64,000 bases of DNA from an uncultured Clostridia bacterium (GCA_947625145.1 CANQNC010000002.1:22576-86575); one strand, 5' to 3'; counted from the first letter of the stretch, positions 4,410 through 59,918 are shown. Notes: a model not told the origin generated them from the sequence alone. Numbers and translations: made by a program.

Positions 4410-4436
4410 ACAATGATTATATGGCAAAAAGCCCCT

Positions 4437-13624: not shown

Positions 13625-13750
13625 ATTTATTTAGCATGGTGTCCGCACGTTCGCACGCGCGAGGTGCGCGTGATCGGCACGCGCGAAGTCGGCAACGAGT
13701 TTTGCGCGCGGCGAGACTTTGCGGAAAGGACGAAACCGAGAGGAAAGCGT

Positions 13751-15016: not shown

Positions 15017-15085
15017 CGAGCGGGCGCAACGACATTGCGATATCAAAAATCAAACAAATATAACCAAAAAATTCAGGAGAAAAAT

Positions 15086-16357: not shown

Positions 16358-16484
16358 TCGCGGGAGCGGAAACGCGGCATAGAGCGTGATGCGGGCAAAA
16401 ACAACGGACATATAAACATATAAAACGAAAATCAAAACGCCTACAACAAAAACGAAAATACAGACAAATAAGGAGAAACAAAAT

Positions 16485-17537
16485 ATGCAAACTGCGGCAC
16501 AACTTTATGAAGAAGGTCAAAGGCTGTTGTTGAGCGGGGACAGAGAGGGCGCGTTCTCGAAGTTTTCGCTTGCGGCGGCGATGGGCAGCGAGGAGGCAAA
16601 ACTTATGCTCGGTTCGGTCTACGGCTTCGACGCGTCCGTGTTCGGAGCGTCCAACGGGGCAAGCGCGCAGAGCGGCGCAACGCAACAAAGAGGAAGCGCG
16701 TCTTCCTCGCAACAGCGTCCCGCCCCGTCCGCGGCAAGACAGGCCGCGCCCGCAAGAAGTTCGATCGGCGGGGGATACGCGCCAAGCGCAAGGCACGAAA
16801 GCGGAGCCTCTTCCCACGCGTCCTCGGCTCCGAGGATTTCCGCCTATGACGCGAATGAATTTGAGATCGTCGGCACAGTGCTTGTAAAATACAAGGGCAG
16901 GGGTCGCGACGTCACAATTCCGCAGGGCGTGACGGAGATCGGATTTCAAGCGTTTGTGAGTTGTTCGACCTTAGAGTCCGTCACAATCCCCGAGGGAGTG
17001 ACAAAAATCGACAAATGCGCGTTTTCGGGTTGTTTGAATCTGGTGAGCGTCTATCTTCCGAAGAGCGTCAGAACAATAGGAGAGAAAGCGTTTGAGGATT
17101 GCGACAATTTGCCGTCGATCGCCATTCCCGACGGCGTAAAGGACATAGACAAAGGCGTCTTTTCGGGGTGCGCCGCGCTCAGGTCCGTCACCATTCCCGA
17201 CAGCGTGTCTTCTGTGTGCGACGAGGCGTTTTTGTATTGCATAAGTTTGAATGATATCCCCAGAATGCGCGGCGTGATCAGCATAGGGGCAAACGCGTTT
17301 TGCGCATGCGAAAGTTTTACGGACATTCGCGTCCCCGACGGCGTTAAGTCTTTGGGAGAAGAGGCGTTCAAAGGTTGCAAGATGTTGAAAACCGCCTATA
17401 TCCCGTCAAGCGTGACGTATATTGGCGCAAACGTGTTTGCAGAGTGTCCCGACCTTCGCAAAGTCGAGTTGCCGTACAGACTGAACGCGGACCTCGGCGT
17501 GCGCACGTGGACGGAAGTCAAATATTATAGGGGTTGA
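16485..17537 (+). CDS. LRR_5 protein with an N-terminal SEL1/TPR-like helical hairpin and Ser/Ala-rich linker
   Basis: AAQLYEEGQRLL...AFSKFSLAAAMGSEEAKLMLG, low-complexity linker, then about 8-9 LRR_5 repeats; AGGAGA RBS. Confidence 0.88.
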   Translation: MQTAAQLYEEGQRLLLSGDREGAFSKFSLAAAMGSEEAKLMLGSVYGFDASVFGASNGASAQSGATQQRGSASSSQQRPAPSAARQAAPARSSIGGGYAPSARHESGASSHASSAPRISAYDANEFEIVGTVLVKYKGRGRDVTIPQGVTEIGFQAFVSCSTLESVTIPEGVTKIDKCAFSGCLNLVSVYLPKSVRTIGEKAFEDCDNLPSIAIPDGVKDIDKGVFSGCAALRSVTIPDSVSSVCDEAFLYCISLNDIPRMRGVISIGANAFCACESFTDIRVPDGVKSLGEEAFKGCKMLKTAYIPSSVTYIGANVFAECPDLRKVELPYRLNADLGVRTWTEVKYYRG

Positions 17538-30917: not shown

Positions 30918-30946
30918 TTGACAAGGGTTATCGCATAGGGTATAAT
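30918..30946 (+). promoter_or_regulatory. Perfect-consensus sigmaA promoter of the giant lipoprotein gene
   Basis: TTGACA 30918-30923, 17 nt, TATAAT 30941-30946; AGGAGGG RBS at 30991-30997. Confidence 0.85.
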
Positions 30947-31001
30947 AATTGCGTATAATAATTCGCACATGTGTAGCGCGTGTACGGATTAGGAGGGAAT
31001 T

Positions 31002-34000
31002 ATGAGAAAACGTAGCTTAGCGATTGCGCTTGTGATGATCATCGTGGTTTTGGCGACCATGATCCTTGCGGCGTGCAATCCCGAGACTTTGCCGGACGAG
31101 CCGCCCAAGCTTCCCGACAATCCCGACATCGGCGGCGATATTGTCGACGATCAAAATTATGTAAGCTCGCAATGGGCGTGGCAGCGTATCAAGGAAACGG
31201 CGTACGCGGCGGCGTCCGATCAGCATGACGCGAGGTACATAAACGGCGACAATTGCTTTGTGCTCGGCTATTCGAAGGACGAATACGACGTGGCGCTGGT
31301 GCTGAGGATGGCGTATGCCATAGACTTGTTGGCGGATTCGAAAGAGGACGATTCACAACTCTTGATCGAACTGAGGAAGTTTGCAAAGGACGAGATCGGC
31401 GACGCCTCTCCCGAGGATCTGAGCGAGCTTTGCGCGCAAGAGCAAGGCGACCTTCTGGTCGGGATTTACTATTTCGAAGGCATTCTCGCCGCGGACGTCA
31501 GAGGCCTCAAAAAGGACGAGGGCGGCGTGCACGTCATGTACACGGACGACGTCAGCGTTTCCTATCTCGGCAGCAAGATCGAAAAGATCTTGAAGGACGT
31601 CAATTTGACGGACGTCATCTTCACAAAACTGCTCGGCTACAATGTGGACTCCCTTTTGCAATCCCTCGTGCAATCGTCGGTCCCGAGTCTGGGCGGCATA
31701 AGCCTTGTCGATTTGACGATAGAAGATTTTTTGGTCAAGATCCTGTTTGCATCCTCCAAAGCCCGCTACGTTGACGAAGGCAACGGCATTCAGACGATCG
31801 AACTTCCTTGCGACCTTTCCATGCTTGTCGGCATTGTTTTCCCCGCCATTCAAGGACTTATCAACGATCAAGTGCAAATTGTGGATCTTGTCAAAAAGAT
31901 CACGGGCATAGACCTTGGCAAGCTCGGCTCCCTCGCGGGCATGGCTGTGGTCATCAACGCCACCGTGAAGGACGACAAACTTCAATCCGTCAACCTCGGC
32001 GTTGACGTCAACCTCAATTCAAACGGACTTCCCTCCCTTCAAGAACAATACGGTTCCTTCCAAAACGACATCGGCATAGACTTCTGCCTTGACAGATTGC
32101 AGTTTTCAAACGACGTGAAATTGGACGTCGTAAGCGTTTTGGACGCTCGCCCCGAAAAGCCCACTTTGGAGGACGGCTCGGACAATTCCTTCTACAAAAA
32201 AATCAAAAAGACGGAAAAGGAATATTCCTTGCTCACATTCGACGGACAACTGGATCTTGTGCTCGACATAGAGGACAAGACGGTCACTCCGCAAAACATA
32301 CTCGACTCTTTCGGCACGCTGTTGACCAACCTTCTGTTTTCGGAAATGGACGACTCCATGAAGGAGAGCCTCGGCGCTTTGCTGAGCAAAGACATTGTTT
32401 TTGAAAAGAGTCAAATTCCTCTTTCGCTCAAACTGAAAGGGCAGATCAATCTGAAAGACAGCAGACAGACCAAGATCGCCGCGCAACTTACGGGCACAAA
32501 CGAAAAGGTGCGGCTTGGGCTTTATTACGACGGAAACTACGACTCCGTGTTTTTGGACGCGAGCGGTTTGCTCGGCGAAGGAAGCACGAAGTTTAAGATC
32601 GAAGGCTTCAACTTCAATCAGCTGATCGACAAATTGTTCGACAAAGTTTACACGCTGATCACAAACGCGATCAACGGCGAGGGCGGCGGAAGCTCCGCTC
32701 AGGACGAATACTCTCAACTTTTGCAAAACGCGGACCTGATCACTCAGCACACCGGCAGAACGGCGGAGGAGAGCGAGGGCGAAGGCGAAGCGGAAGAAGA
32801 GGGCTTGGACACCCTCGGCCTCGTCGTCGCGATCGTGGATCAGATATCCATTGCCAAAAACGGGGACATCTTCAACATCACGGGCATTGATTTCACCATG
32901 ACTCAAGAGATCCTCGACGCGATCTTCGGCATGATCTTCAAGGACGATCTTGCGGGCGGCAAAGTGCCTCTCGTCACAGATCCCATGCCCAAACTGTCCT
33001 ATGCAAATCAGGGCACGGGCAAACCCAAGACCTTGAAGCTGGAAAACGTCGCGCTCGGCGTGGAGAGCCCGCTTGTGGGCCTCGGGATAGGTCTGTCCGT
33101 ACAATTCGGCACAATCAAAGACGTAGAAAACTTCAACAGCCTGTTCGCGGGCATAAACGAAGGGGAATATCTGTCCGTCTCCACAGACGGCGGGAAGACC
33201 TTCAACATGGACTTCCTGCATATAGAGCTAAGCACCGCGCTCAACATAGACTTGCAGACTTTGAGGAGCAGACTCGGCGAGTTGAACATCGCTATCGACA
33301 ACTTGAAGATCGGAGACAGCTACGAAGGGCTGTTGCTGAACATCTTGCTTGAGCTTGGCAGCATAGACGCCGGGCTCACCCTCGACGTCAAGGCGGACCT
33401 TGACCTTACGACGCAAAACATTTCGCTTGACACGCTCAACACGTCCTCGGCGAAGATAGAGATCAAAACGCGCGAGCAGGAGCCTCGCACCATGGTCGAG
33501 CTGTACTTGCAGGACGGCGCGCTTTATCTCAACACACCCGGGCTTGAGAGCATCTCCGTAAAGCAGATCAAGATCACGCTTGCAGAACTGTTTGATATAG
33601 CCAATCTGACCCCGAGCGCTACGGACGGCGAGTCGGGCGCGCTTGTCGCGGAGGATCCCGCCCCCAAAGAGGAAGAAAAGGGCACGGATATTATCGGCTT
33701 GATCGCAAGCCTTGTCACCGAATTCAGGATAGGCAACAACGCGATCAGCATAGGCTTGGTCTCCAACATTGTCGATCAATTGTTGACCACGCTTCAAATC
33801 GACAACGTGGAGTTTAAGTTTGACAATTCGGACGTCAACGGCGGCATAAGGCTGGAATTCCCCGCGGGATTGGAACTGCCCGAGGCAAAGTTCAGCGTAT
33901 TTTTGGCGTTTGGCGATTCCGCAAACCTCAACGTGTCGCTCAACGGCATAAACGTGGGCGCGGGCATGCAGACCACGCGCTATTTGCAGGACACGGAAGC

Positions 34001-37000
34001 GCGGCTTTACACAAACATTCTTGAAAACCCCTATGTGTACGTTGACTTGACTTTGGGCGTCGACTTCCAAGCGGACGAGGGCAAATCTTCGCTGGAATTC
34101 GGGCACAAGGGCACGCATTGGATGGACGGCGACGGCAACTACAAGGATATGAAGGAGACGCCTCCTCCCCAAAACTACAAGGGCAAATATTATTACGTGG
34201 ACGAGGAAGGCAAATATGTCGTTGAGGACTATCAATCCACGGACCTCTTCTTCGGCACGCACATGGACATCAACTACGAGCTGAGAGTGGCGGCAAGTTT
34301 GGATCTGTCTCCCGTCATCGCGTATCTGTTGGGCGCGACCTCGTTGCAGACCAACTACAACGCTTCCGAGATCATGATCGAGCTTACGGGCACGAAGTTC
34401 GGAGGGGAGCGCGAAGTGCTTCTCGGGCTGTACCTTGCGGGCGGCTCGGCGTTCATCGACGCCTCTCGCTTCGGCTTGAACCGCGTGGAAGTGGACGTGG
34501 ACGTGTACGGATTGCTCCTCAAATATCTCAGCGTCAATTCCAATATCACCATAAACAGCGCGGGCTCGGGTTCGGATGCTTTGGCGGCGGCGGGACCCGA
34601 TTTGTCCGACATTGCGGACAACGAGACCCTGTTCGGGCTCACCTTGCTTGCGACGCTCACCTCGCGCGGGCTCAGCATAGAGCTTACGCAGGGCATCGTC
34701 TCCTTGCTTTACGAGCTTGTGGGCATAGAGGCAAGCGATCTGACGGCGTGGGCGGAGATCGCGTGGCAAGCGCTCGAGGAGGAGGAATACAAGCCCTTCC
34801 GCCTCGGCGTCGACGTCAAAAACGACAACAACCAGACCATTTCCAACGCGGAGATTTACGCGAGAGAGATCTCGGTCATCGCGGGCGGCGAAAAGATGCG
34901 TGAGATCCGCCTCAGAAGGCAGACGGACGACGCAGGCCAAGGCAAGTTGTTGGATCAATATATCAGCGAACTCATCAATGAGGACGAAAATCCCTTCGTG
35001 GTGGTGCCGCTGTTCAACGAATACTCTGACATCGTTGTCCCGTCCGTGTCCGTCGAACTGAAAGGCGCGCTGACCGTGGGCACTGCCGCGGACAACGCGG
35101 AGTGGACTCTCGGACAGTGGATCGCGGCGGTGACGGAAGCCATGCCGAGTCAAGACAACCCCGATCAAGGCAAGGAGAAAAACCCCAACCTCGAAGCGTT
35201 CCTGCACAAACTTGTGCTTCAGATCAACGCGCCCGTGGAAGTGGGCACGAAGATAGGGTTCAGAATTGCGGCGAAACTTCGTCTCAATCCCGAATTCCCC
35301 GTCAACTCCATGCCCAACGTCAAGTTTATGCTCTATGAAGAGAGCATGGGCTTGCTTGACAACTTCACCGAGATCTACACAAAGACGGTGGACGGCTCCG
35401 CAAAATACAAAAAGATAGAGCTTGCGGACGCAAAAGTCAAGTTTGCGGAGGGCGAGGAGCTGTATATAAGGACTTATATCCCCGAGGGCATCTCGCTCAG
35501 CGAGATCAAGACGACGGACGATACCTTTGAGATAGACGGCACCTATTACGTCCTGCTTTCGGACGGCACGTATTACAAGACAGTCATCAGCGCGGCAAAC
35601 AAAGCGCAATTTGACGTGGTGTACACGCCCACAAATCTGTTTGACATAGACTATTTGCTCGCGCATGCGGACATTTCCATCGAATTGTACAACCGCGACA
35701 TCGTGGAAGTGGAAAATCTCATAAGCGGCACGGCGATAGGCGCGGACGAAAGACAAGAGCTTGTGGACAGCACTCTCGTCGCGCTGAGATTGATCTACAA
35801 CGGGGAATCCATGGGCTATCCCACAAGCAACCTGTATGTGGATCTTATGGACGACTTCCACGTGTCCATCGCAAACATGCAGGTCAAAGAGACGATAGAC
35901 TCCTTGATGTCCTTGTTCAGTGGCAACGGAGACAAGAATCAGTCCGAAGAGGGCGGGCCCGAAGCGGCAAACAACATCGCCGTCACCGCGGCGGCGGAGA
36001 ACGCGGACGGCTCGGAGGAGAAGGGGCTTGTTGACACACTGTACGACATACTCGGCGGCTTCGTGGGCAGGCTCGGCGCGGACAGCAACGGCATTACCGT
36101 CAATTTTGCAAGCGGACTTCTCGCAAACCTGCTCAACATGCTCCTCAACACAAACCTCGCGCCCGAGGACATGCTTCAGATCAACGGCGAAGAGAGCTAC
36201 TTCACCTTTGCGTGGACGTACGCGGTGGACGCTCTGCTCAAGATAGACCCAATCTATATGGGGCTCAGGCTTGACAGCATCAAGATCGGATTGGGGCAGG
36301 AGGATTCCATCCTTCCCGCGGCGTTTGACAGAAGCATCTACACGGGCTTCGATCGCCTCGACAACATATCCTTCGAGGTCGCGCTGGACGCGGAGATCGT
36401 GCTGAAACAGCAGGAGGACGAAGTCAAGCTCCAAAACTATGTGGACGCCTTCGTGCAGGGCTTGGAGATCGCCCTCGGCTTCACTGTGGACAAGGATATC
36501 ACCTACGACTTGGGCATCATGCTGGGCGGCAATATCGAGCTCGGCGACCCCGACAAGACGGTCGTGGCAATTTCTTTAAGGATAAACGAAGAAGATAAGA
36601 TAGCTATATATATTAAGGGCTCGTCCATGTACGTTGACCTCGGCGATCTGTCCGACAGGGCGATCTACATTGAAAACACGGGCGTGTCCGACCTCATCTG
36701 CGGCTCCATATCCGAGCTTTTGGGCAGAGCGGCGGACGCCGAGAGCGGAGACGCGCTTGCCTCTGCGGAACCCGAGGTTTCCCCCGAAGAGCAATTGCAG
36801 ATCATGCTTGACATCTCGGACGGGCGTTTGGGGCTGTTGGTCACCGAACAGGTGATCGTAGGATTGCTCGCTTCCTTCCTCAATGACGAAAAGGCGGGCG
36901 CGACGCTTGACGAGGTCATCGAAAAGATACAACAACTCAACCTCAACCTCAGCGCGGATGTGGAACTGCAATTCAGCCCCGGCATCGCGCTTGCGATTGC

Positions 37001-40000
37001 AATTTCCAGCGACCTCATTGACATCGAGGCGGCGCTCAGCACCATCAACCTCGCGACGGGCACAAACCCCGAAGTCAACGACATCTACGAGCAACTTCAA
37101 ACTCGCGTGGACGACGCGATAAACGCGGTGGACTACGTCGTCGCGGAGGCGGAATACAGCGGCACAAAATTCTACAAAGTCACCCAAAAAGAGGGAGACG
37201 GCCGCTATGAGTACGTCGAAGCGGGCAAGTTTGACGACGGCGCTTACGACAGAGTGGACGAGCAGGAATACAAAGCCGTGCCGCACTTCAACAAGCAAAA
37301 CGATTCGACGATCATCAACCTCTCCTTGGATCTGTACATAGACTACTCCACAAGCGCGACATACATGCTTGTGACGGATTCCAAGGTGCTTGAAAGCTAC
37401 AGGGAATCCGAAAGATATTCGTACAGCGAAGTCAGCGATTCCTTCGTGCAGGATCCGCACGGGACGTTCATCAGGGACGGCTTCTCCTTCGACTCGTTGC
37501 TTGCAAAGATATTCGGCTTCGAGGACCTTCAGTCCGCGCTTAAGGGGGTCAAACTGCCTCGTATCCTCTTCGACGTGAAAGACGGCAAGTTTGACGTCGG
37601 AACGCAGGAAAACGCGTTCTCGTTGTACGATCTGTTTGCGCAGCTCGGGCTGAGAATGTTCCTCGACGACAGCATGGACGACGGCTTCAAGCTCGCAATT
37701 GAGGCGCAATTCGATCTGAGTAAATTCGGCATCGAGACCCTTTCGGACCTCGACGGCATTTACGCTCTTATCCAAAAACTCACGTCCAAAGATCCTATTG
37801 TACAAAAAGAGGTAAGAAGCATTCTGCTGAGCGCATTGGAGCTTTCCGTCATCGTGGACTTCACCTACGAACTCGGCGAAAACAGCACGAGGAAGATCGC
37901 GATTTACTTGGTCAACAACGAGATATATATCGACATGAGCGGTCTCGAAGGCCCGAAGGCGAAGATGGGCGTTTACGACCTGCTCGGCTTGTTCCCGTCA
38001 AACGGAGACGCATTGGCGGCGGCCGGCAATACGACCGAGGGCGACGTGACGGGGGAGAACAACTCCGCGCTTAACACGGTGTTTGCCATCCTCAACGACC
38101 TCGCAAAGACCCTCATCTTCCAAAGCACTCCGTGGCTTGCAAACAGCAAACTCAGTCAGCTTGGCAGTTTGACTTTGCTGTTCAACTCCAACGCTTTCAA
38201 CTCCATTTTGACCACTCTGTTCCAAACCCTGTTGCAAATGGACACGCAATTCGATTCGGATCAGCTGTTGCTTGACGACGAAAAGAGCGGATTGTTCATC
38301 AGGCCGGGAGACGCGCGCTTTGGCAACAGCGTCGTCACGGCGGAGGCAAGGTTCGAACTTCTCAACAGACAAAATCCCGCCTCAAAGGGCGAGGACGACA
38401 AAAACTTCTTCTTCGATCTTATGATAGGCATAGGCGTGACCGCCAACATGCTCAACGACGAGATCGTGGAAAGCGTACTGCCCGTCGAGGACAGATACGA
38501 ATTTATGAATTTGAAGGAGCTGATCGACAATGTGATGTCCATTGTCAACGGCTTCTATACGCACAGCTACAGTGCGGTCGACGCGGAAACCGAAGGATTT
38601 GTGCAGGGCGGAATATACTATCGCTTTGTGCAATCCGCGGACGGCGGCTTCGTGCTGAAAGGCGAAAACTATCGCGCGCTCAACAAGGGCGAGAAAGTGG
38701 CGGACGGCACCGCGCTGTATGACAGGCAGTACGCGCAAGTCGTGGGCGATCAAGTCGTCATAGTCAGATACGTCGAGGATCCCGCGGGCGAGTATGTCTA
38801 CGTCAAGGACGAGGACAAATACGTCAAAGCCTCCGACCTCGAGAAAGTGCCCGACGACGCGCCCCGCTTCAGACAGGAAAACACGGACGCGGACGGCAAC
38901 ACCGACTTCCTTAAAGACGAAGCGGGCAACCCCGTCGCGCCCAAGGACGCCAAGCTGTACGCAAGACGCGGCATCCCCGTCTACTCCGAGCAAGTGATCT
39001 CGCTCAGCATAAGCGGAATTCTGTATTTCAGCAGCGACGGAGTGGACGAGTACGACATCAGCGGCTTGTTCGGCAAGATCCCCATGCTGTCCGACATGTT
39101 GCTTATGCTTCAAGCTCAAAGCCGTTTCTTCGGCGGCGTGGGCATAAGGCTCAGCGCAAGCGTGGACCTTGCCGCGATCGACATCAGAGGACTTCTGTCA
39201 AGCGAACAGGAAAAAGCAATGGACAAATTCGAGGAGTTCATTGCAAACAGCAATCTCAGTCAGCTTGAGCTTGCGGTCGAGTTTATCGAAGTCAACGAAA
39301 ACGGCAATTTTGCAAGATACGACGACGGCGGCGACAACGGCGCGGGCAGTCTGAAAGTTTTGGGCGGCGTCTATCTGTCCGACGGCACGCTGTATCTTGA
39401 CGCGACGGGCATCGCCTCCGCGCAGCAATACTCCCGCATAGACAACTTCATGGACTATGTGCACAGGATAGCCCAAAACGGCGTCGGCGGCTTGTTCGGC
39501 GGCACGGCGACCGAAGCGCTTGCGGCTGACGACCCCACAACTTTTGACGTCACGGACGCGGAGTACAGAAACGCGCTCGTGTACTTGCTGTACACAGACA
39601 CCGCGTTCCAGTTGCAATTTGCGCAATCCTTCTTGGCGTATGCGCTGAGTCTGCTCATCCCCAATCTGGATCCCTTGACGGACGTCTTCGACGTGGCGGG
39701 CGTCACCGTAGGCTTGGTCCACGGCGAGGCGGAGTTCAGACGGATAGACGCAATTCAAAATCCCGAACTCAGGGCAAAATTCGACAGCGATCCCGCGTAC
39801 AGAAGCGAGCGCTATGCCTATTACGACTCCGTGCATTGGGAGACCTACGATCCCCTCGCGGGCAAACTCGAAGATCATCCCGAGGACCCAAGCTCCACGG
39901 AATTTTACAGCGACACGTATCTTGTGGTCATGACGAAAAACGAGCAAGGCCACACCATTCCCAACATTTTCGAGCTTGAGTACACGCAAATGTTCTCGAA

Positions 40001-43000
40001 GCAAGCGGGAGAGGGGGACGTCTACGTCTTGACGGACGAGTACAAGCAGGGCGAGACCTATGTCCGCATAGGCAACGAGTACAAACTTGTCGAATACGAG
40101 ATCTCGGGCAAGGCGATAGGCAGTACGACCAATCTTTATGCCACGATAGGCGTGGGCACGGACTCGACAGAGCATATCGCGCTCAGAGGCTCCAAGATCT
40201 ATCACAACGTCGACGACGCGGACGGCAATGTCGTGGACTATGTTGAGGCAAGCGAATATATCGATGACAAGACATTGAACATCCACACCTACATCGTGCG
40301 CAACGGCGTCTACACGCACATCGACATGCTCAGCGAAAGGCAGTACGGCTATGTCAAGGATCCCGACGGCGCATATTATCGCACTGTCGTCAGCTACGGC
40401 GGGATCAGCGAATACATGCTCGGCCTCGACATTACCACGGGCGTGCTGAAAGCGGGCTTGAAACTCGGCAGACTCGATATCGATTTCGGCGGCGGCACGA
40501 AGTATTTGCCCGACTATATCAAAGACGAAAAACAGCACACCTACACTCTGACAGACGGCGACGTGTCGAGGACGGTGCCTTACACAACGGACGGCTATGC
40601 CGCGCTCACCGATGCGCAAAAAGAGGCGGCGGGCGACATAGACATGCCTGTCAACCCATTCTATGACACCATAGTCACCATCGGCTTCTCGGTGGACCTC
40701 AGCTTGGGCATCACGGAGGGCTTGCTCGACTTCGGCACCATCATCAGCGAGATCGTGGGCAACCTCGCGGGCATCAACGTGGAAATGCCCGCCACCACCA
40801 AGGGCTTCTCGTCCGCGCACCTCAGGCTTGACGTGTCCTTGATGCTGGACATGTACGACGTGACAAATTCCGAGTTGAAGCTGGAACTGGTGTCCGTCAC
40901 CGAATCCGGCTACGACGCGCTGTGGGCGGGCATCTACTTCATCAACGACACCCTCTATTTCGACCTCAGCGAAGTGTTCAATCTGCCCAAGATGAGCATA
41001 AGCAACGTGGGCATAGAGGACATGTTGGAAAAATTGCTCAAGATAGACAACAACGATCCTCTGTTCGTCGCGGGCAACAACGAAAAATACAAGGCTTCGG
41101 GCGACGCGCTTGTCGCGGCAAACGACTCCGCGGGCGAGGATTCGGACGGCAACGGTTCTGTGGACATCCATGACAAGAATTTGGGCTTCGCGATCCTGTT
41201 CGACAAGGATCTGTTGACCATCATGATCGGCGACAAGCTGTTCGATTCAATCATCAGCATGTTGCCCGACAGCGTAAGCGAAAAGCTGGGATTCGAGCTG
41301 AAAGAGCTGTTCTATGAAGAGATAAACGGCAGTTTGCAGATAGAGCTTAACACCAAGGACGACTTTGACCTCGAGTTGAAGATGTCCCTCGGGCTCGACG
41401 GCAGCAGATACAATCAAGCGGCGACTGTGACCGCGCCGAACATCACCCTCGAAATGTCGGGGGACGGCGCTTCCTTCTCGCCCGACGAAAGGACCGTCGC
41501 GCAGAACATCCAAAGCGGCCTCGACAACAAATACTATGTGTTCAGAGAGGACGCAAACGGTCACTATGTCGTCAACGCTTCGGGCGGCTATGTACGTGCG
41601 CTCAAGCCCGACGACGTGTTGCAACCCACGGACAAGAAGTACGCCAAATACAGGCTGTACTACAACGGCGCGAAGGGCTTCTATCTGAAGAAGATAGTTG
41701 ACAGCGAGATCGCGGGCGGCGCGGAGACGGAAGGCGACGAATTTGCGGTGCAGACGGGAGATATCATCTATGTGCTCGTCCCGGGCGCAGTCGCCAACCA
41801 GTCCTATGTTGCGGACGGCGGCGTGTACGACATGTACCTCGACCTCACTCTCGGCATCCGCAACGTCAAGATCGCATTCTCAAACGCGCGCAGCTACACG
41901 CTGACGGGTTCGGACCTCGCGGGCTATGTGGACTTCGGCGACCTCGACCATATCAAGATCGCCGCGTACCTCAACTTCGACACTTCCTTCAAGACTGGGG
42001 ATGAAAACGTCATCGACCTCACTCCCGTGCTGACCAACTTCCTGCCCGGACTGACCGAGGATGACATCGCGCAGATCATTGCGCTCGGCGACGATGGCAA
42101 GGACGTCAATCGCAAGAACAGGATCAAGATAGAGGCGGAGATCCAGACCATGGCTCTGATCAACTATCTGAGGTCGCAATTGCTCAAGGACTTCGAAAAC
42201 GTGGAAGGCGACATGTCGTTGTACGACACCATGGACCTCATCGGCAAACTTCTCGGCATAGGCTCGGAAGGAGGCTCGGAAGAGGAGAGCGGCAGCGTGT
42301 TCGACGACTTGATCGGCTTGCTTGACGACATCGCCAGCTTCTTCAACGTATCCATCGAGATCCAGACGAAGGGCGGAAACGACGCGGACTATCACAACCT
42401 TGTGGGCATCTACATGTCCACGGGCACATTCTCTCTGTTGACAGAGGACGAGTTGTTGCCCGAAAGCGACGATTTCGTGCCCGAAGAGGAGCGCTTTGAC
42501 CATTACTATCCGTCATTTGACGGCAAGTATTATTACGACGAAGCCGCGCAGGACGGCAACGGCGAGTACAGACTTCTGACGGACGAAAGCTACACGGGGC
42601 AGAAGTACGCCTACGACAGCAGCTATTATTATCAAAACGACATCGGCAGATACAAGCGCGCAAGAGGCGGCCTGTATGTGGACCTCAGCTATTTCAACAT
42701 CCCCAGCGTCTACGTCAATTCGGCGATCGTAAGGGACGTGTTTGCGGCTGTGTTCGGCTCGGGCGACGCGGGTGACGCGAGCGACGCGCTTGCCGCCGCA
42801 CAAGCGCAAGGCGCGGACGAAACCGAGGAAGAGGGCATATTCCCGCTCATCAAGGACGACTCCATCCTGTCCTACATAAGGATGTTTGTCTCCTCCTTTG
42901 TCGTCACGTCCAAGTATGTCAGACTGTTGGCAAATCCGACCTACATCAATCAACTGCTCGTCATCCTCATGGGCGAGGAGGGCGCGATCCAATTCGATCC

Positions 43001-46000
43001 CGCCGAGTTTGTCAACTCGCCCTCTTTGACGATAAACATAGATCCTTCGCAAACCACCTACGAGGATATGACCGAAGCGATAGAAGCCTCAAAAGCCGCA
43101 TACGAAGCGGCGGATGGGAATGCCGAAAAGCAAAAATCCATCGCGACTCAGCTTGGCGAATTGCTGTCCTTGACCAAAAACAGATTTGCCATCACCGAGC
43201 ACTTCGGCACCGAGGACGAGGCGAAGTTGGGGACCTATTACGTCGACGAGGAAAGCGGCGCGTACGTCATGAAAAACAACCTCAGCGCCACCGAGCGCAA
43301 GGCGTACGACGCGGCGGTCGCCAAGGGCGAAAAGAAGTATTTCGAGATAGTCTCCGTCCCCACCTACATCAGGCTGATGGACGACGCGGGCAACAGGACG
43401 GACAACTTTGTGTTGTACACCTCGGCCTCGGACAGGCAGGTCGCGCGCAGCGAGCAGGACGAGACCCTGATCCCGCTCGGGCTGTACTATCCTCAGCTGT
43501 ATGTGATAGAGGAGTATGAGCTCGAGGCGCCCGAAAACGGCGTGCCCATCGTGGACACGAACACCGCGTATGTGCCTGCGGACGACAAGGGGCTGTACTG
43601 CGTAAGGACGCTTGAGGAGCGCAATCCCTTCATCGCGTTGAAGGTGTTCTTGTGGAACCATGAGATCGAACTCAGCCTCGAGTCTCCCGGCTTCGAAGCG
43701 ATCCCGTTCAACTATGTCACGGGCGCGGAGGCGGAAGCGAACGGTCTGACAAACGTCCCCGTCGAGCACTGGTACAAAGACGTGCAAAACGTGTTCTTCA
43801 CAAGCGAGGACAAGGTCGAGGACGGCCTGTTCAGTTGGAGGTCGGACTATTACACCATGGGCGCGTTCGATCCCGCCAAATACAGCAAGGATCCTCGCTT
43901 CATCGAGAACAAGAATCAATATTATCCAATCGACTATACGACCCTTTACAAGTATGAGGGCGGCGCGTACTCGCGCGTCACCGAGGACGAAAACAGTCTG
44001 CCCGACTATCTCGCCGACATGGAGAACAACGACGCGGAATACTATGTGTACGTCGACTCCAACTATCAGAAACTGCAAAGAGCGTATATCTACAAAAAGA
44101 ACGTATATCAGACCATATCCAAGAGGGTGATCGACAGCAGCGAAGAGGAGTATTACAGGGCAAATCCCGACCAATACTTCGTGCGTACGCAATCGCCCAG
44201 CAGCGTGGACAGACCCGACCTCACCGAAAAAGAGGGCTATCCTTACAACTATGTGCCTTTGGATCAGCTGTTCTATCTGTCCCTGTCGTTGAAGGGCAGT
44301 CTGTATCTCAACGCGGGCAGGATATACTTCGAATTCGGCGATTTCAAGAAGATCTACAACGCGGTCAACGGCAGAGCCGAGGACACGGATATCGACCTTT
44401 CGGTGTACAAGAACGTGGCGTATAAGAAGTTCCACGGAAGCTACGTGCAGGTCACGGACGGCGCGGAACTTCAAACGCTTCGCGACGCGGGGCAACTTTA
44501 CATTTGGATGAACGCCGCGCTCAAGGAGCAGTATGCCATCGACAAGGCGCTCGGCGAAGTGTTGGGCGGCTTGCTTGGCGACATGAAGGGCAGATTCCAA
44601 GTGCAGAGCAACGAAACGCTTGTGTTCTACTTCTCCATTCGCCTTGACATGAGCTTCGAGTTTGACGTCAAGCTGAACACGGAGACGGTCATCATCCCCG
44701 CGGATCCGTCCAAGGGCGAGACAGAGCCCACGACGAGGACGCGCGCGAAGATCGCGTTGCAACTGTTGATACGCGACGCGGACGTAGCGATCGACATGTG
44801 GGGCGAGCAGAACGACAAGATCCCCGAAGATCAGCGCACAGACGGCAACAAGTACGTGGATTTCGACCACGTGAACGATTACACCGACCTTGAGGACGGC
44901 TCGTTGACGCACTTCCTCGGCATTTATTACAACCATGACGAGGACACGGGCTCGGCGGGGCTGTATCTCGACCTCGAGTGGCTGCTGGGCAAGGACGCGA
45001 AGATCTATGTGGACATGAGCGATTACACACTCGAGGACGTGCTGAACGGCTTCATCGGCGAAAAGCTCGGCACCTCCACGCAGGCCAGCTCGTCCGACGC
45101 GCTCGCGGCGGCGGAAGTCGACGACGAGGGCATGTACAAGGACGGGCAAGCCTCGGACGACACAAGGCTGTATCTGAACATCTTTACGGGCTCGGTGGCG
45201 TTGAACGTCACGTCGGGGCTGTTGAAGGTGCTCCTCAACGAATTGGCGCCCGATCTGAACATAAGTTCGTATCTGCCCAACCTCAAGATATATCTGAAGC
45301 AAGATTTGAACCCGTACAGCCTGACTCTCGGCGCAATGCTGTTTGACGAGACGGGCACTATGCCCATGCTCGACCTCGGGCTTGTGATCGAGGGCACAAA
45401 CGGCACGGACTATTCAAGTTCCGTCGAGTTCGGCCTCGCGGAGGACTTCAGAGACAATCAGTCGGGCGAAAACAACAAAAACGACATCTTCTACTACGCC
45501 AACTTCTATTCCGAGGACGGCGGCGATTGGGCGAAGGACTTCGACGAGAAAGGCTATCTGCAACTTGTGAAGGAGTACAAGCAGGCGGAGACGGGCGGCA
45601 AGTACAAGAAACTTGAGGACGGCTCCTATGCTCCCGTCGAGGACGGCTATGTCGGCGAATCCTACAACCTCAACGAGTATTATGAAAACGCAAACGGCAA
45701 CTATGTGCTCGGCGATGGCGGCATGCGCGAATACAACGCGGAGACGGACGCGAACGCCAAGCGCTATGCGGTTTACGACGGTCCCACGCAGAGATACGCC
45801 AAAGCCCCCGTGCGCATGGTCGAGATCCTTGCCGACAGGCGCTATGCGGACAGCGAGGACAACGATCTGTGGGCGTTTGTGGACGGCAAATACGTGAAGT
45901 TGGGCGAATACCTCAACGTCACCGACGACGGCGTGATCTATCTCAACAGCTACAGACAGCTCAAAGACAGGAAGCCGTTCAAGGAGTACATGAGCCCCAT

Positions 46001-49000
46001 CTTCAAGATGGACGCCAATCAAAACCCCGTGCAGGTCGGCAAAAACGAGCTGAAGGGCTTCACGGGCGAGGGCAATATACAATACGTGCGCGAGGACGAG
46101 CTGAGCGCGTATATTGACGGCCACGCGGACGCGACCGAGCTTGCCGAATTGAAAGCAAGCGGCGTCAAATACGTTGTGGACGGCGTGACGTACATCGCGG
46201 TGGACTTCGGCGAGAAAAAGGACGGCTTTACGGACATCGACGAGGCGGACAAGATCCCCGCGGAGATCCCCGTGTACAAAGTCGTCGAGGACTTCAACAA
46301 CTACACAAGGGCGTTCGGGCTTGATCTCGGCGAACTGCTGAAGGACGACAAAAACAACTCCGCGGAGCAGAAGGAAGCAATGGACGTCATTCTGGACAGC
46401 TTGCTCGGCGGGTTGCAGACCCTCGAGATCGGCGCGAACCTGAGCATAGCCATCAACGTTTCGGACATCCTCAACTGGACGTATCAGCTTACGCAATTCA
46501 TAGGCGAAAGCTCCATAGGCGAGTATCTGTACATGCTGATCGGCGCGCTGAACGGCGACGCGGAGCGCGACAGCAAGATCGGCTTGGAGCTTGCGTTGAA
46601 GCTGCAACTCGACATGAAGGGAGTGGCGCTGTATCTCGCAAACAAAAAAATTGCGGATTCCTTGAGCGGGGAGCTTGCGAAAGCCGCGAGAAGCACGCTC
46701 ATCCTCGACCTGCTCGAAGGATGCAGACTGTACGTCGAGCTGACCTACGACACGGATTTCCACGGTGAAAAATCCGCCAAGGCGTATCTGTGGGCGGGCG
46801 TTGACGACGGCAAACTCAACCTCAAGATGGACTTGTCCGACATCGGCACGATCGTGGGCTGGGGAGACTTCTTCAGCTACGCGCTTGTTGAGGACATGGA
46901 TCTGAAGCAACTGTTTGCAAGCGCGTCCACCGCTTCTTCCGCGGCGCTTGTCGCGGCAAACACGGTTGTGGACGAGTCGTTTGACGACGACTACACGGGC
47001 GTCATCCCCGAAAGCATTTGGGACATCATCAACGCGGTGCTCGGCAGGCTGTACGTTGCAAACGACTTCCTGACCGTGGGCTTGAACGAGGAGTTGATGG
47101 GCGACCTCATGGGCTTGCTTGCGGGCGCGGATAACCAAGTGTTGCAAGACGTCGTGGGCTTCCTGCCCAAGCTGTACGTTTCGGACGGCAACGACACAAG
47201 CGGCATCACGTTCAACATGTTCGGCGAGAGGCCGTCGCTGGATCTCAACCTCAAATTCAGCACGGGCGAGCCGTACTATCTGAAACTTGCCGACTACAAC
47301 AAATTCTACGGTCACAACGGGACGAGGCTGAACGCGGGCGGCGCTTCCGCAAAGGATTACAGCGGCACGCACTTCCACCTCGAGGACGGCGAGTACAAGC
47401 TGTGCACGGATCCCGAGTGTGCAAACGCGGACAAGTACGTGTTGGTCATGGACGACGAGTACGCGCTGATCGGCTATGCGTATCCCGATTGGAAGGGCGA
47501 CAAGTACGCCTTGAACGCGAGCGGCGCGTTTGAACTTGACAACGAAAACGGCATGTACATCAAGCTGGGCAACTTCAGCTTGACCATGCATGTGGGCGAG
47601 CTGTACGCAAAGGTCAACAAGGAATTCTCCGTCCCCGAAAGCACAATGTACGGGCTTATCCACGAGGACGCCGTGACAAAGGACGCGGAAGGATACCTTG
47701 TGGACAGCGAGGGCACGCGTGTGCATGACGAAAGCGGCAAAGAGATCTCGGATCCGTACATCAAAGTGGATCATCTCAAGCTGACGCTTGCGCTGTCCCT
47801 CGGCGTATCCATTTACGGCAAGCCGCAGACAGACAGCGACAACATCATCGACCTCAGCGAGATCCTCGACCTCATCATGGGCGTGATCAATCCCAACAGC
47901 GCGATCGCGGGCAGCACGTTGCAACTGAGGATCACCAACGACCTCGGCAGGGACGACGGCGCGTATCTCACGCTGGATCTGCGCGCGTTCATAGACCTGA
48001 GCGACTTCACGCTTGAGGCGTACATAGGGCTTGTAAGACACAAGACCAACAACAGCAAGAGCACGCTGTTGTCCATCGCGCTGAAAGACGAAACGCTGTA
48101 TCTGGATCTCAGCGGACTTTTGGGCGACACGGCGAAGATCAGCCTCGGCGGGCTGAACACTACGACCTTGCTGAAAAATCTGAAACTCGCGGGCAAGTCC
48201 CTCAGCAATCTTGTGGACATCATCGCGGGCAAAGACGCTTCGGCGGCGGGAGACGCAATGACCGCGGCGGGCGACGACGTGCACGGCACGCTCGAGCAGA
48301 TGATGAGGGATTATGCATACTTCATCCTCATGTTCAATCCGCGCACGACGCTGTTGCAGATCAACGCGGACCTCATCAACGCGATCTACAAGAAGGTCAT
48401 GCAGATCCAAGGCAAGGACTTCAGCAAGAATCTGATCCCCGACATGGGCGACCTGTTGCTTATGCTTGACGCGACGCAGGACGACGGCACGCGGTTCAGC
48501 ATCAATCTGAGGCTGAGCGACAGCCTGTACGTCTGCCTCGACCTCGAGCCGATCGACGCCACAAAGTCGTTTGGCAAGGGCGATATCTTCGTAAGTCACG
48601 GTTCAAACAGGCAATGGGACACGCCGCTTACGGGCTACACGGAGATCGGCACGCTTGACCTCGATCAACTGCTCAACGGCGTCACGGACGACAAGACGGG
48701 CTTGACCACGCCGTACGACATCATGTCCGGGCTTGACAAACTGCCCGACGTGGGCGCGCACCTCTCCCTCGACTTCACGATCTCCACAAGGGGCATGAAG
48801 CGCGGAGACGCACACTTCGACGATACGTTTGCGGGCTGGCTGTGCAACGATCTGATCGGCACTCTGTTTGACGGCAACGAAATGTTCGGCAAATTCGAGC
48901 TGATCACCACCTCTTCCGCGTACAATTCGTACGAAGGTTCCATTTACGTCTACGACGCGGACAGCGAAACCTACGTCAAGCAGGAAACCAAACCCGCGTG

Positions 49001-52000
49001 GAGGGCAAGCACTTACTACAAGTTCACGCCTGCGGAGGTCAATGTGCTGTTCCCCGACTCGGCGTTGTCGCTGACGTTGGATCTGAAGTTGTCCGTCAAC
49101 CTTGCCACGTTGATCGTCAACGGCATTTCGGGCATACTGGGCGCTGACATCGCATTGGAGATTTATGCGGGCACGCCCGTCAACACAAAGATAGCGTCAA
49201 TCTATTATGTCGGCTCGTCAAGGCTGAACAACAGGCACGAGCTTGTCAACAAGACGACGGCGGGCGCAAACATCTTCTCGGACGCGCTGTATCTTGACCT
49301 CAGCGGGCTTGGGCTTGGCAAGATCAAGTTCCAAGGCTTCTCGGGGCTTCTGAACGCCAAACCGTATGCAAACGACGTTGCGACGACCGCAAGCTCTGCG
49401 GGGACCGCCGCGGCATACTCCGCCGCGGATCAAGCGGCTGACGGGGAAGTCACGGAAGGGCTCAGCTCCGCGCTGTACCTGACGATCGACCTCGAAAGCG
49501 GCCGCGTCGCCGTCAACATCGACAGAGGCATGATAGATTTGGTCATGTCCATGCTCGGCGTGGAGCTTGGCTTCGCACTGCCCGACATCCAAAGCGTCGC
49601 GCTTGCGCTTGAGTTTGGGGACAAAGGCGTCAGCTCCATCAACCTCAACGCCATTTTGGACAGCTACGATTCCGCGTTTGACGCCACCATAGACACCTTC
49701 GAGCTTGACCTCGGCAACACCAAAAACTACGTCAACGCCGACGACTTGATCGCGGAGGTCAAATCGGGCTATGCGGGCGTTACGCTTTCAAACACGGCGG
49801 GCACAAACTCCCTCATCCAAAACATTTTGGACGGCATCGATCCGCACATAAACATAGAGATCATCAGCAAGGTCTGGCAGGCTGTGTTGGCGAACGTCCC
49901 GACCGTGGGCACCAGACAGGTCAACGCTTTCCAAGAAAAAGCGGTCACAACTCTGACGGTCACAAAGCAGAAGGCGCTTGTCAAAGGGCTTGGCAACATC
50001 AACCATATGCTGATCGGCATCAAGAGCACAAGACCGTTCTTCAGCAGTGTGAGCAGCAGCAAAGGGACGCTAAGCGCGGAAGCCATACTTGCGTCAAACA
50101 ACCTGTGGCTCACCGAAAACCTTGACATCGCCGGCAACCTTCTCTCGATCGTGGAAGGAGTCAACACGGCTTTCGGTTTGGATCTGTTCCCGCTTGACAT
50201 AGGCGGCTTGATGGGCGGCGGAGGATTGAACCCCACGCCTCACGGACAGATGCTGGACTTTGTCAACGGCTATGACGGCGACAATCAGACATGGTCGTAC
50301 AGCGGCGGCTATTCGGACACGCACGCCACAAGCGGAAGCAGCAGCGGCGGCGGAGGCGGAGGAGGCAGCAGCAGTTCGACAAGCGACGATTGGAGCTATC
50401 CTCTCAACTTGTCCAACCTCATCAAATCCGTGGACGTCTCATTGTTTGACAGCGCCGAGTATCACCCCTATGGCTTCAACATGAGTTCTTCCTTCGCCGA
50501 CAACGGCAGAAGCAAGATCAAGGTGTCCGTCTCCCTCAACAAGGACGCATTCAACGAGTTGTTGTTGATGGTCTACACCGTGGTGCTCAATCTGATGAAG
50601 GACGGCCTTGCGGGCGACAGCGGACAGGAATACTTCTCAACCAACCTGAACACCGTCACAAAAAATTCGGATTACAACAGCAAAGAACAGGTCGCGGACA
50701 TCCTTAAAGAATTGAAGAGATTGGTCGACACGGGCGCGACCACGCAGGCAAAGGTGGACTATCTCGAGCCTTACGTCAGGTCCATCCCCGCCACGTTGTC
50801 GAAGTGGTTGTTCAAAGCCACGCTCGGAAACACCATCTGGAATTTGGGCGGTCTTGCGGGCGCGACCATCGAAGACCTGAGCGGCCTCATTGGCGCGTTG
50901 CTTCCCATTCCGTTTGCGACGGGCACGAAGCTGAACCCGAACATAAACATCTACATTGACATCAATCCCGTGGCGTCCGAGTACAACAAGTCGGGCTATA
51001 CGATGCGTCCCGGCATCCAAGCCATCGAGATCTTTGTCAACGGCGAATCCGCGGGCAACAACTCCTCCGTCACGTATTACACGTCGTCGAGCAAGAACTA
51101 CAAATTGCAACCGTCGACCACACAAACGTCAAACATGACGGCAAGCACGGCGGACTCCTCGTTCCCCGCGTGGGACTTCTGGATGGCGCATATCAACCCG
51201 TACAACACGGTCGAAAAATCGGACACGAGCGACATGTTGTCCTTCAACGACGCGGACAGCGCAAGCAAGTCGAACTCTGTCTCACAACCCGATCCTCCGT
51301 CCGAGATCGTCATAGAGGACGTCGCCACGCGCGAGTTTAAGATCGGCTCCTTGACGTACACCTTGACGGACGACGTGTTCGGCAACAGTTCCCTGTTCCC
51401 GCAATTTGCAGACGTCACGCTGGGCAACAAACTCGGCGGCGGCAGTGCGGTGCACACGGCGGACACCTTGACAAACGGCACATACATCGTTTGGGACGCG
51501 TCCACTGTGGACCTCACGCCCGCAAGCAGAAGCGCGGACGGCGGAAGAAGGCTGGCGGGCTATGTGTACGGCTATGCGCTCAACGCGGTGCTGTACGCCA
51601 TCCCCGTGTATGTCAAAAACAACTCCTACGCGACCAAACTCGAGTCAATGGACAGCGGGTCGGCAAAGACCATCAAACTGGAGACGGACGGCAGCTCGTC
51701 GAGCGCCAACAACGTCCTGCCCGACCTCGTGAAGTTGACATTCAACGGCACGGCTTCCTCGCAATCCTACATTTATCTGGGCACCTATCTCACGGACGAG
51801 ACAGGCGCAATGCAGTACGCCGTGCTCGAAACGTCCACAAACACCTATGAGAAGCTGGGCAAGAGGTTGGTCTACGACAAGAAAGATCCCACAAAGTCCG
51901 AGCAGATGACAAACGCGGACGGCGGCACCTACAAGCTGTATCCCGCGTACATTGCGGGCTTGTCCAAGTCGGGGTCGAGCTACAAGACATTCACCGACTC

Positions 52001-58451: not shown

Positions 58452-58465
58452 GCGCATTGGGTTTC

Positions 58466-58506
58466 AACAAAAAAACGCTTCGTCAAGGGACGAAGCGTTT
58501 TTTGTT
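58466..58506. terminator. Strong bidirectional intrinsic terminator
   Basis: AACAAAAAAACGCTTCGTC-AAGG-GACGAAGCGTTTTTTGTT. Confidence 0.9.
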
Positions 58507-58519
58507 TTCAAAGACGCGT

Positions 58520-59764
58520 TCAGCGCCTGCCCAACTTTATGTTGTCCTCGGTGCGACAGCGAAGGGAGGGGATGGGGTTTTCGGCGTGTTCCGCGCGGTA
58601 GTCCTGCCCCATGTTGTCGATATGCGCGCGTATGACCTGATGACTTGCGACAAGTTTGTCGTTGGAGTTGACCGCCTTTTGATATTTGAAGAAGTCCGCG
58701 TCCGCGCCCAGCCTGTGCACGTCCACATAGTCCTCGCGGAGGGCGGTGTTTTCCACTGTTTCCGCGATCACTTTGCGTATATATCCCTCCTGCGGCGCGA
58801 AGTGCAGAAGCTCGGGGAAGTCGCCCGCGGGGATGACCTGTTGCCACTCCTTTTTGCCGTACTTTTTCAGGGCTTCGGCGGCGATGTGCAGATGGACGAT
58901 CTCCTGCCTCAGGCACTGTTCCCAGATCTTCTTGACGTTTTTGTCCGTTTCGTCCTTCCAGCAGGAATAGTAGAGATAGCACTCGGTGTATTCATGGTTC
59001 AGCCAACATTCCAGCCAGCCCTCGTTTACGTCCATAAGCGAGCCGTACTGCGTGACGTGCTGTTCCTCCACCATGGCGATCTCCTGATACAGCCTGCGCC
59101 CGAGGTCGCTCTCGTAAAACGCGCACTGATTCATATAATAGTTCATTGTCTGCTGTTCGGCGGCGGTGATGATGGCAACGTCCAGCTTTGTGATGGGCGC
59201 GCACTTTTTGAAGTTGACGGGACGACGCACGTCGTCGTAGGGGTGGCGATGATGCGCGATCGTGGGGCGGGCGGGAGTGATCTCGGTGTAGCCGCCTACA
59301 AGCATATCCGACTTGATCCCGTGTTCGAGGTCAAGCAGATCCGCGTATCTGTAAAGGTGGTCGAAGTCCTCCAACAGCGCAAAATCCAGCGCCGCTTTGA
59401 CGTATTTGTCCGGCTCTCTCTGCGCAAGTATGGCGGTCAGCTCGACGGCGAGCTGTTCGTAGGCTATCGTGGTCTCCAAAACGCTCTCGTCCTTGGGTTT
59501 GAGGCAGGCGATGCGCTTTTGCTGTTGCTGTTCGCTTTTGCGCACAAACTCCAGTTGTCTGCGCAGATCGTTGTCCTTGCAGTGGCGGAAAAATTGATGG
59601 GAAAACCAAACCGCCTCGTATTCGGTGCCGTTCATCAAAATGACGCGCGTTTTCGTAAATGGGTCCGCGCCGAGTTTTGAATAGCTTTCGGGGTAGATGG
59701 TTTTCCAATCCATAAACAGTTTTTCCGAATTTTCGGGGGTTTCGTTGAACGGATTGAACGACAT
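58520..59764 (-). CDS. Conserved ferritin-like (di-metal, ExxH motifs) hypothetical protein
   Basis: RVILMNGTEYE, YEQLAVELT, LLEDFDHLYRY, AAEQQTMNYY, EEQHVTQY, EIVHLH; AGGAGG RBS before ATG 59764. Confidence 0.8.
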   Translation of the reverse strand: MSFNPFNETPENSEKLFMDWKTIYPESYSKLGADPFTKTRVILMNGTEYEAVWFSHQFFRHCKDNDLRRQLEFVRKSEQQQQKRIACLKPKDESVLETTIAYEQLAVELTAILAQREPDKYVKAALDFALLEDFDHLYRYADLLDLEHGIKSDMLVGGYTEITPARPTIAHHRHPYDDVRRPVNFKKCAPITKLDVAIITAAEQQTMNYYMNQCAFYESDLGRRLYQEIAMVEEQHVTQYGSLMDVNEGWLECWLNHEYTECYLYYSCWKDETDKNVKKIWEQCLRQEIVHLHIAAEALKKYGKKEWQQVIPAGDFPELLHFAPQEGYIRKVIAETVENTALREDYVDVHRLGADADFFKYQKAVNSNDKLVASHQVIRAHIDNMGQDYRAEHAENPIPSLRCRTEDNIKLGRR

Positions 59765-59918
59765 ATTTGTCCTCCTTTTTGTGATGCTTAGATTATTGAC
59801 CCAAGCTCCGCTTTTATTCCGCTTCCGCAAGGAAATATTTTCGAGACGGCAATTTGTGTGTTGCAAAGTCGCACTCGCTGTGCTAAACTGTTATATATAT
59901 GGAATAAGGAGAAAGGTT

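Follow-up and report, generated by a model that had tools for sequence, protein, structure and literature searches.

A seven-residue motif repeated in the linkers of a giant Clostridia protein is a candidate site for one shared reader

A giant gene with twelve linker motifs

We analyzed a 64,000-nucleotide (nt) stretch of DNA, hereafter the window, from an uncultured Clostridia bacterium (GCA_947625145.1, CANQNC010000002.1:22576-86575). The window carries an open reading frame (ORF) of 9,149 amino acids (aa), here called the giant (P0001), in whose linkers a short peptide motif recurs twelve times (Table 1). The N-terminus of the giant, MRKRSLAIALVMIIVVLATMILAAC, has a lipobox pattern whose Cys is residue 25, and [LV]-[AV]-A-C is also found in four homologues with intact N-termini (P0004, P0008, P0012 and P0013). 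By the rule that [LVI]-[ASTVI]-[GAS]-C closes the signal peptide, we take the giant to be an Lgt/LspA-type lipoprotein.

Table 1. Features of the giant gene and its surroundings. Positions count from the first letter of the window; for each motif copy, the fraction gives the species with x-A-x-x-[AST] at the orthologous linker.
Feature	Position	Strand	Remarks
Signal peptidase I, the genome's only clear one	3810-4427	-	S26; PF10502, E 8e-32; 27 kb upstream of the giant gene
Promoter-like TTGACA, 17 nt spacer, TATAAT	30918..30946	+	by-eye sequence reading
AGGAGGG	30991-30997	+	5' of the ATG at 31002; by-eye reading
Giant ORF P0001	31002..58451	+	9149 aa; carries all motifs
Lipoprotein-type signal peptide	31002..31076	+	lipobox L-A-A-C, Cys25; sequence pattern
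Motif 1, GALVAED (aa 879)	33636..33656	+	weak form; 17/20
Motif 2, DALAAAG (aa 1192)	34575..34595	+	16/20
Motif 3, IAVTAAA (aa 1659)	35976..35996	+	weak form; 13/20
Full junction (aa 1802-2041)	36405..37124	+	five beta-strands, helix, motif loop, hairpin, two helices, three strands, helix
Motif 4, DALASAE (aa 1917)	36750..36770	+	18/20; target of the second structure model
Motif 5, DALAAAG (aa 2336)	38007..38027	+	18/20
Motif 6, EALAADD (aa 2838)	39513..39533	+	16/20
Motif 7, DALVAAN (aa 3368)	41103..41123	+	18/20
Motif 8, DALAAAQ (aa 3928)	42783..42803	+	14/20
Motif 9, DALAAAE (aa 4699)	45096..45116	+	17/20
Motif 10, AALVAAN (aa 5314)	46941..46961	+	19/20
Motif 11, DAMTAAG (aa 5751)	48252..48272	+	14/20
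Motif 12, AAYSAAD (aa 6137)	49410..49430	+	weak form; 9/20

The preliminary description of this DNA had listed twelve copies of the motif and proposed that they are either protease sites or peptides docked in each module. All twelve coordinates lie in frame 0 of one ORF. The last copy is better placed one residue later (AAYSAAD, nt 49410), and three of the twelve, GALVAED, IAVTAAA and AAYSAAD, are weak versions. The recurrence exceeds what composition yields: when the protein was shuffled 2000 times, the pattern [DEA]A[LM].[AS]A, present 8 times in the giant, occurred 0.25 times on average and at most 3 times, and DAL.[AS]A, present 6 times, occurred 0.07 times. Synonymous codons differ among the twelve copies, which therefore do not form a DNA repeat and point to selection on the peptide.

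An [LIVM]-Y-x-D strand precedes each copy, and the linker around it varies in sequence and length, as had been described; the motif itself has S/A/G/T on its upstream side and D/E on its downstream side. Across 150 aligned junctions, the first Ala of the motif lies a median of 38 residues after the Asp of LYxD (interquartile range 34-40, range 25-51) and the next hairpin a median of 20 residues after the motif (18-22, range 13-37), a spread that may be narrowed by the choice of these 150 junctions as the top motif scorers.

Conservation and concerted change of the motif

To describe the motif we seeded a position matrix with the twelve copies and iterated it over proteins P0001-P0016. With this matrix 134 sites emerge (4-13 in each protein), whereas shuffled proteins yield 0; every one of the 15 long homologues of the giant has the motif. 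Among the 134 sites, an upstream run of S/A/G leads to E (78) or D (32) at position 0, followed by A at position 1 (131), V/L/M/A at position 2, T/A/S at position 3, A at position 4 (117), A/D/E at position 5 and D (75) or E (31) at position 6. The overall consensus reads (S/A/G)n-[D/E]-A-[L/V/M/S]-[T/V/A]-A-[A/S/D]-[D/E].

Orthologues from the genus were compared linker by linker. From each of 20 species we took 19.5 kb of the gene, in every case a single open frame, and located the twelve linkers in it by BLAST. Within 45 aa on either side of the mapped linker, the top-scoring site has the form x-A-x-x-[A/S/T] in 189 of the 240 cases (12 linkers in 20 species). A best-hit search of this kind favors such matches, and shuffled linkers served as the control: a score of at least 8 bits is reached by 153/240 real linker windows (64%) and by 0.5% of 2400 shuffled ones (ten shuffles each). 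Conservation in homologues, which the preliminary description had put forward as a check, is thus strongly borne out both among the long homologues and at the orthologous linkers.

Within the linkers it is the first Ala of the motif that is kept best. In the 20-species alignment of aa 1830-2420 (A1), the first Ala of motifs 4 and 5 never changes, in contrast to the remainder of both linkers, which differs in sequence and length. A second alignment (A2) combined 150 junctions, 12 belonging to the window and the other 138 to the 20 species; here mean column identity is 13%, and only the LYxD Asp (137/150) and the first Ala of the motif (141/150) are at least 90% conserved. In a wider set of 218 junctions, described below, the first Ala is kept in 215, position 0 is D/E/Q in 183, and position 4 is A/S/V/T in 207. 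Position 2 is the most species-specific, being hydrophobic in 136 sites and small or polar in 79. On these comparisons, the motif is under strong selection at the peptide level.

A further property of the motif is that its wording is particular to the species and spans many linkers at once, for example as DALAAA, DASTAAD or EAVTVAD. The form DAL[A/V]AA is shared by the window and five other species, [D/E/Q/G]-A-S-[T/V]-A-[A/S]-D by a group of nine species, and E-A-V-T-V-A-[D/A] by two species, in which position 4 is Val in 7/10 and 3/8 linkers; one species uses E-A-M/Y-A-A-A-D/P. The species are related and not independent, and the three main wordings probably represent a few lineage events, each of which hit many linkers.

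We quantified this concerted change on 218 junctions with a motif score of at least 2, after 34 of 252 had been dropped for a low score or for lying too near the end of the locus. For each of the 122 columns with at least 70% occupancy, from -80 to +90 residues around the motif, we took the probability that two different junctions share a residue within a species, minus the same probability between species, and compared it with 60 permutations of the species labels within each junction. Excess identity is greatest at motif position 2 (z = 13.7), followed by positions 4 (z = 8.7), 0 (z = 7.7), 3 (z = 6.2) and 5 (z = 3.6), and falls to z below 3 in the immediate flanks. Two columns in the module itself also score (z 6.4 and 5.1). 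Both have a Leu consensus and are uniformly Leu in the nine-species group, which Leu usage does not explain. As a candidate pocket in cis they were rejected: within clades neither column is associated with Ser at motif position 2 (31/38 vs 43/55 and 30/38 vs 33/55), so that they reflect the uniformity of one clade and are not counted as a pocket. Among the 122 junction columns, only those of the motif show strong concerted change that survives follow-up.

Gene conversion between linkers can be ruled out as the source of the shared wording, because the codons differ between linkers: Ser at position 2, for instance, is written with both TCC and AGC within one species. The differing codons instead indicate parallel selection. 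That the motif alone among the alignable columns changes in concert points to one shared factor reading all copies, as opposed to twelve private pockets. A similar behavior is seen in species-specific cohesin-dockerin pairs, where many copies within an organism change their wording together between species; both sides are folded domains there, whereas in the giant only the seven-residue motif changes in concert. As the best-kept feature of the repeats, and one whose wording moves in step, the motif offers a handle on the function of the protein and predicts a specific, co-evolving reader.

Structural models and candidate functions of the motif

Two AlphaFold2 models place the motif in a loop. 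The first, of aa 1830-2420 with 20 alignment rows, has a mean predicted local distance difference test score (pLDDT) of 56.7, and both of its motifs fall in stretches at 26-40. The second, of the junction aa 1802-2041 with the 150 rows of A2, reaches a mean pLDDT of 72.9 and a predicted template modeling score (pTM) of 0.54. Its strands (model residues 36-43, 53-60, 63-71, 74-78 and 87-89) and the helix that follows them (94-112) have a pLDDT of 84-96, with parts at 92-96. The helix is amphipathic, contains D, S and E, and packs on the sheet. Directly after this confident helix, and hence after a five-strand meander, comes the motif (116-122), modeled as coil with its blocks at pLDDT 59 and 53, and then a hairpin with a pLDDT of 48-56. 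The same junction architecture occurs in all 12 junctions of the window. In both models the motif is predicted to be exposed and undocked (coil, pLDDT 26-59).

Comparison with known folds gave hints only. Foldseek found no match in the PDB at E <= 0.001 for either model. VIA-align (wide) returned best Z scores of 5.6 and 6.0, below the stated background of 7-8 for unrelated models. LolA/LolB chains, open beta-barrels with a helical lid, are the commonest entries (11 and 13 of the 50 shown for each model), the best being 8v1k_B (Z 6.0, root-mean-square deviation 5.2 A over 134 residues, spanning the linker), but these scores do not rise above noise, the aligned sequences are 5-10% identical, and profile searches gave no match; other weak entries, TamAB (Z 4.4) and LptFGC (Z 5.0), are within noise as well. 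ESM Atlas look-ups with aa 1830-2420 and aa 26-500 gave best values of 0.87 and 0.86, below the level of 0.9 taken as a lead. The structural entries hint at a curved open sheet in the models and at nothing more specific.

The modeled unit also invites comparison with repeating-beta-groove (RBG) proteins, whose unit is described as a five-strand meander, a helix and a loop (PMC7613979). Like the bridge-like lipid transfer proteins of the RBG and AsmA-TamB type, the giant would repeat a five-strand unit with a helix and a loop along a very long protein. Unlike them, it gives no sequence or profile match to such families (Chorein-N, AsmA, DUF490 and related ones), all structural Z scores lie within noise, its strand columns show consecutive hydrophobic residues instead of strict in/out alternation, and its host appears to be a member of the Clostridia. 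To our knowledge, RBG loops do not carry a conserved motif.

We tentatively favor the explanation that all copies of the motif are recognized, as a linear site, by a single shared factor, which would most likely be an endoprotease nicking the loops. One recognition site would lie in each flexible loop that follows the helix of the repeated "five-strand meander + helix" unit, and the carrier would be a giant lipid-anchored surface protein. A single factor would read all copies in a cell, and its specificity would drift between species. This reader would most likely be an extracytoplasmic endoprotease nicking each loop, with the outcome that the giant is either cut into modules or nicked yet held together by its sheets, in analogy to the giant adhesins of genome-reduced Mycoplasma, which are processed on the surface at specific motifs.

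The chemistry of the motif suits such a role. Its core (positions 1-5) is built from the smallest residues, and 35/218 cores are entirely devoid of polar or modifiable side chains, so that side-chain modification cannot be general. An all-small core would also be unusual for strong binding and is well suited to the residues on either side of a scissile bond (P1 and P1'), where small residues are common in endoprotease sites. Three scissile registers would be compatible with the aligned sites: [D/E/Q]↓A, A↓[L/V/M/S] and A↓[A/S/D]. The new N-termini proposed in the preliminary description do not hold together as a set: one implies a cut after position 3, the others a cut after position 4. Of the two roles that it had offered, concerted change favors one shared reader, which fits a protease. 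The other, a plug docked in the groove of its own module, loses ground, the motif being undocked in two models and no module column from -80 to +90 convincingly changing in concert with it.

The closest known parallel is provided by the P97/P102 adhesins of M. hyopneumoniae, which are cut at S/T-X-F↓X-D/E in disordered regions, with fragments that stay on the surface (PMC3322551). These fragments are believed to stay attached to the cell, and which protease makes them is not known (PMC3322551). What the two systems have in common is a large surface protein from a genome-reduced relative of the Firmicutes and a short motif in a disordered region, followed by an acidic residue. In contrast to P97/P102, the motif of the giant is centered on Ala, contains no Phe and has no aromatic P1, and occurs in 12 regularly placed copies within one repeated architecture; the proteins have no sequence relationship, and fragments have been demonstrated for the adhesins, cleavage of the giant being a proposal. 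Should the reader be a protease, a surface would be built here from a polyprotein of ~1 MDa, so far documented mainly in Mycoplasma. The motif supplies exact peptides for metaproteome searches, and its species wordings amount to a natural specificity-swap experiment.

Candidate enzymes for the cutting are available: the genome encodes four S8 subtilases, one of them in a 2835-aa frame, and one HtrA-type protease, in addition to the signal peptidase I of Table 1.

Several points weigh against a loop-nicking protease. Cutting by the reader is itself an inference. A genome-wide scan with the motif found 29 sites of at least 12 bits, of which 12, including the top four, lie in the giant and the others mostly in low-complexity sequence of short frames; outside the giant no protein has a convincing copy, and the reader would thus have a single substrate. 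There is no protease gene among the neighbors of the giant gene, and the giant itself contains none of the canonical protease signatures HExxH, GDSGG and GTSxA. Position 0 lacks D/E/Q in 35/218 sites, and no register fits a known rule everywhere. The rather tight spacing (interquartile ranges of 34-40 residues from the LYxD Asp and of 18-22 to the hairpin) would also suit a structural role. Finally, both models are of modest quality, which makes the undocked motif weak evidence.

A less probable explanation is that the motif is bound but left uncut, its twelve copies recruiting one partner, or a single-copy part of the giant, to decorate or cross-link the rod. Such a site would leave the same single-reader signature as a protease, and the exposed motif, its flexible flanks and its regular spacing from the adjoining helix and hairpin would all serve it. 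The smallest side chains, with 35/218 cores lacking any polar or modifiable one, would however provide little binding energy; no partner gene lies beside the giant gene, and no other protein carries the motif.

The tight spacing, together with the position of the motif directly after a confident helix, also leaves some room, though we are doubtful, for a structural latch in cis or between molecules. In such a latch an Ala-faced turn or helix (positions 1, 4 and 5) would pack on its own or a neighboring module, and so close the loop over the sheet or link molecules into a lattice. The invariant Ala and the small residues at positions 4 and 5 do form an i, i+3, i+4 pattern, a Ser is frequent ahead of the motif, and some copies are followed by Gly or Pro. 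Against this, the motif is undocked in both models (pLDDT 26-59), and twelve pockets should change in concert with it, whereas none of the 115 non-motif columns from -80 to +90 convincingly did; the two candidate columns (z 5-6) lack any within-clade association with the motif. We rank endoproteolytic nicking first, a non-cutting partner second, a structural latch third, and signal peptidase I low.

A bolder version of the protease explanation draws on the likeness to RBG proteins and seems to us unlikely. The giant would form a rod on the cell surface, assembled from at least a dozen beta-meander units that shape a groove; the motif loops would lie across the groove as straps, and a co-evolving protease would cut all of them, licensing or opening a very long conduit or adhesive surface. 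On this equally unlikely view, a bacterium for which no need of lipid bridges is known would possess an RBG-like machine armed by proteolysis.

Signal peptidase I recognizes small residues at -1 and -3, and the motif, with small residues followed by acidic ones, had been noted to resemble sites of this A-x-A type. That the twelve copies are such sites is improbable, although one S26 signal peptidase is encoded in the window (3810-4427, minus strand). The resemblance is weak: depending on the register, the (-3,-1) rule is followed in 163, 61, 139 or 161 of the 218 sites, the best register thus reaching 163/218, and Val occupies position 4 in most linkers of two species. The invariant Ala would sit at -4 or -5, where the rule does not explain it. 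The absence of a preceding hydrophobic helix, already remarked on in the preliminary description, is upheld, as there is no hydrophobic membrane segment (h-region) before the motif, and the helix that does precede it is amphipathic and lies on the sheet with a pLDDT above 90.

That the motif lacks any function of its own and simply reflects linkers rich in Ala, Ser and Asp, or the common ancestry of the repeats, is hardly credible: the linkers are indeed rich in A, S, G, D and E, and a best-hit search favors matches, but shuffled windows rarely reach the score of real ones, the Ala column is better kept than all core columns but one across repeats of 13% identity, and the wording shifts in parallel across linkers with different codons.

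Other routes to the cell surface were also considered. The C-terminus of the giant has neither LPXTG nor a hydrophobic tail, and the 98%-complete genome has no match to the sortase family PF04203, which speaks against an LPXTG-type sortase substrate. Linkage to peptidoglycan through an Ala-Asp at a new N-terminus was rejected, since the genome has no YkuD L,D-transpeptidase (PF03734); the L,D-transpeptidase linkage of a protein's N-terminal Ala-Asp to peptidoglycan has a precedent (PMC10787603).

Gene setting and distribution of the family

The giant gene appears to be a stand-alone transcription unit because the downstream gene (58520-59866) lies on the opposite, minus strand. A 407-aa ORF just past the stop codon (58457-59680, plus strand) was considered as an operon partner and rejected: it looks like an antisense frame of that minus-strand gene, which leaves the giant without an operon partner. 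Antisense open frames of up to 1068 aa also occur inside the giant gene (33228-36434 and 45414-48599, both minus strand, and others). These frames and 58457-59680 look like by-products of composition and not genes. The flanking genes encode an acyltransferase, a bPH_2 protein, the product of an unknown minus-strand gene, a DUF2804 protein and a diacylglycerol kinase; one flanking gene has a weak, sub-threshold GH127-like match.

Database searches attach no known family to the giant. Pfam and NCBIfam searches of the whole protein, run as two halves, gave no family at cut-off or at E <= 0.01, with one sub-threshold kinase entry only, and a PDB sequence search with the 20-species profile gave no match at E <= 1. 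A word-indexed search recovered the 15 long homologues at 25-41% identity, two of which are named only "hypothetical protein [Clostridia bacterium]", and a full HMMER scan of 1.84 billion representatives returned 17 proteins. A search for shorter homologues gave 5 proteins, all unnamed or "hypothetical", and a literature search found no description of this giant protein family. Pfam PF07532 is present in two homologues of the giant.

At the genome level, a search of contigs for the locus with the single protein confirmed none, and relatives were recovered with a segment and with a profile. With aa 1830-2420 as query, matches came from 32 of 36 further genomes in the genus, whose open frames extend to about 9,600 aa, some of them truncated; none came from 24 other families of the order, each represented by one genome. 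A profile of the same segment matches in 92/107 genomes, covering 15 of the 16 genera of this family of small-genome Clostridia, with frames of up to 10,465 aa. In the host, whose genome comprises 1.54 Mb in 48 contigs, the giant gene takes up ~1.8% of the genome. A gene that is both widespread and costly carries no annotation.

Two of the relatives differ in form. In the single-contig genome G035 (contig C1, about 668-675 kb), the orthologous gene appears in shorter frames (2645 and 1085 aa), which may stem from assembly frameshifts or a real split. At locus L035 (genome G021), the 19.5 kb segment has 38.5% G+C, compared with 49-56% in the other 19, its frame being open and its motifs kept.

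The modules of the giant range from 260 to 770 aa and differ largely by Tyr-rich inserts (window 35544-57100; for example at aa 1515, 2539, 3511, 3835-3856 and 4893). These inserts contain a recurring Y-[YV]-x(2-8)-[DN]-G-x-[YF] and look like repeated beta-hairpins; whole inserts are missing from some orthologues. Soon after the last motif-bearing junction comes a Ser/Gly tract with seven consecutive Gly (window 50331-50384, aa 6444-6461), and from about this tract onward, in the C-terminal third, the composition of the giant turns rich in Ser, Thr, Tyr and Asn.

The genome has 27 frames of at least 1200 aa in all. Besides the giant, very long ones occur on contigs C21, C3 and C11, with lengths of 6244 aa, 3673 aa and 2835 aa; the 2835-aa frame contains an S8 subtilase domain, and none of these other long frames is enriched in the motif. 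The window also carries three consecutive genes for BspA-type leucine-rich-repeat proteins (13616-17537, plus strand; PF13306, E 1e-99, 1e-85 and 1e-52).

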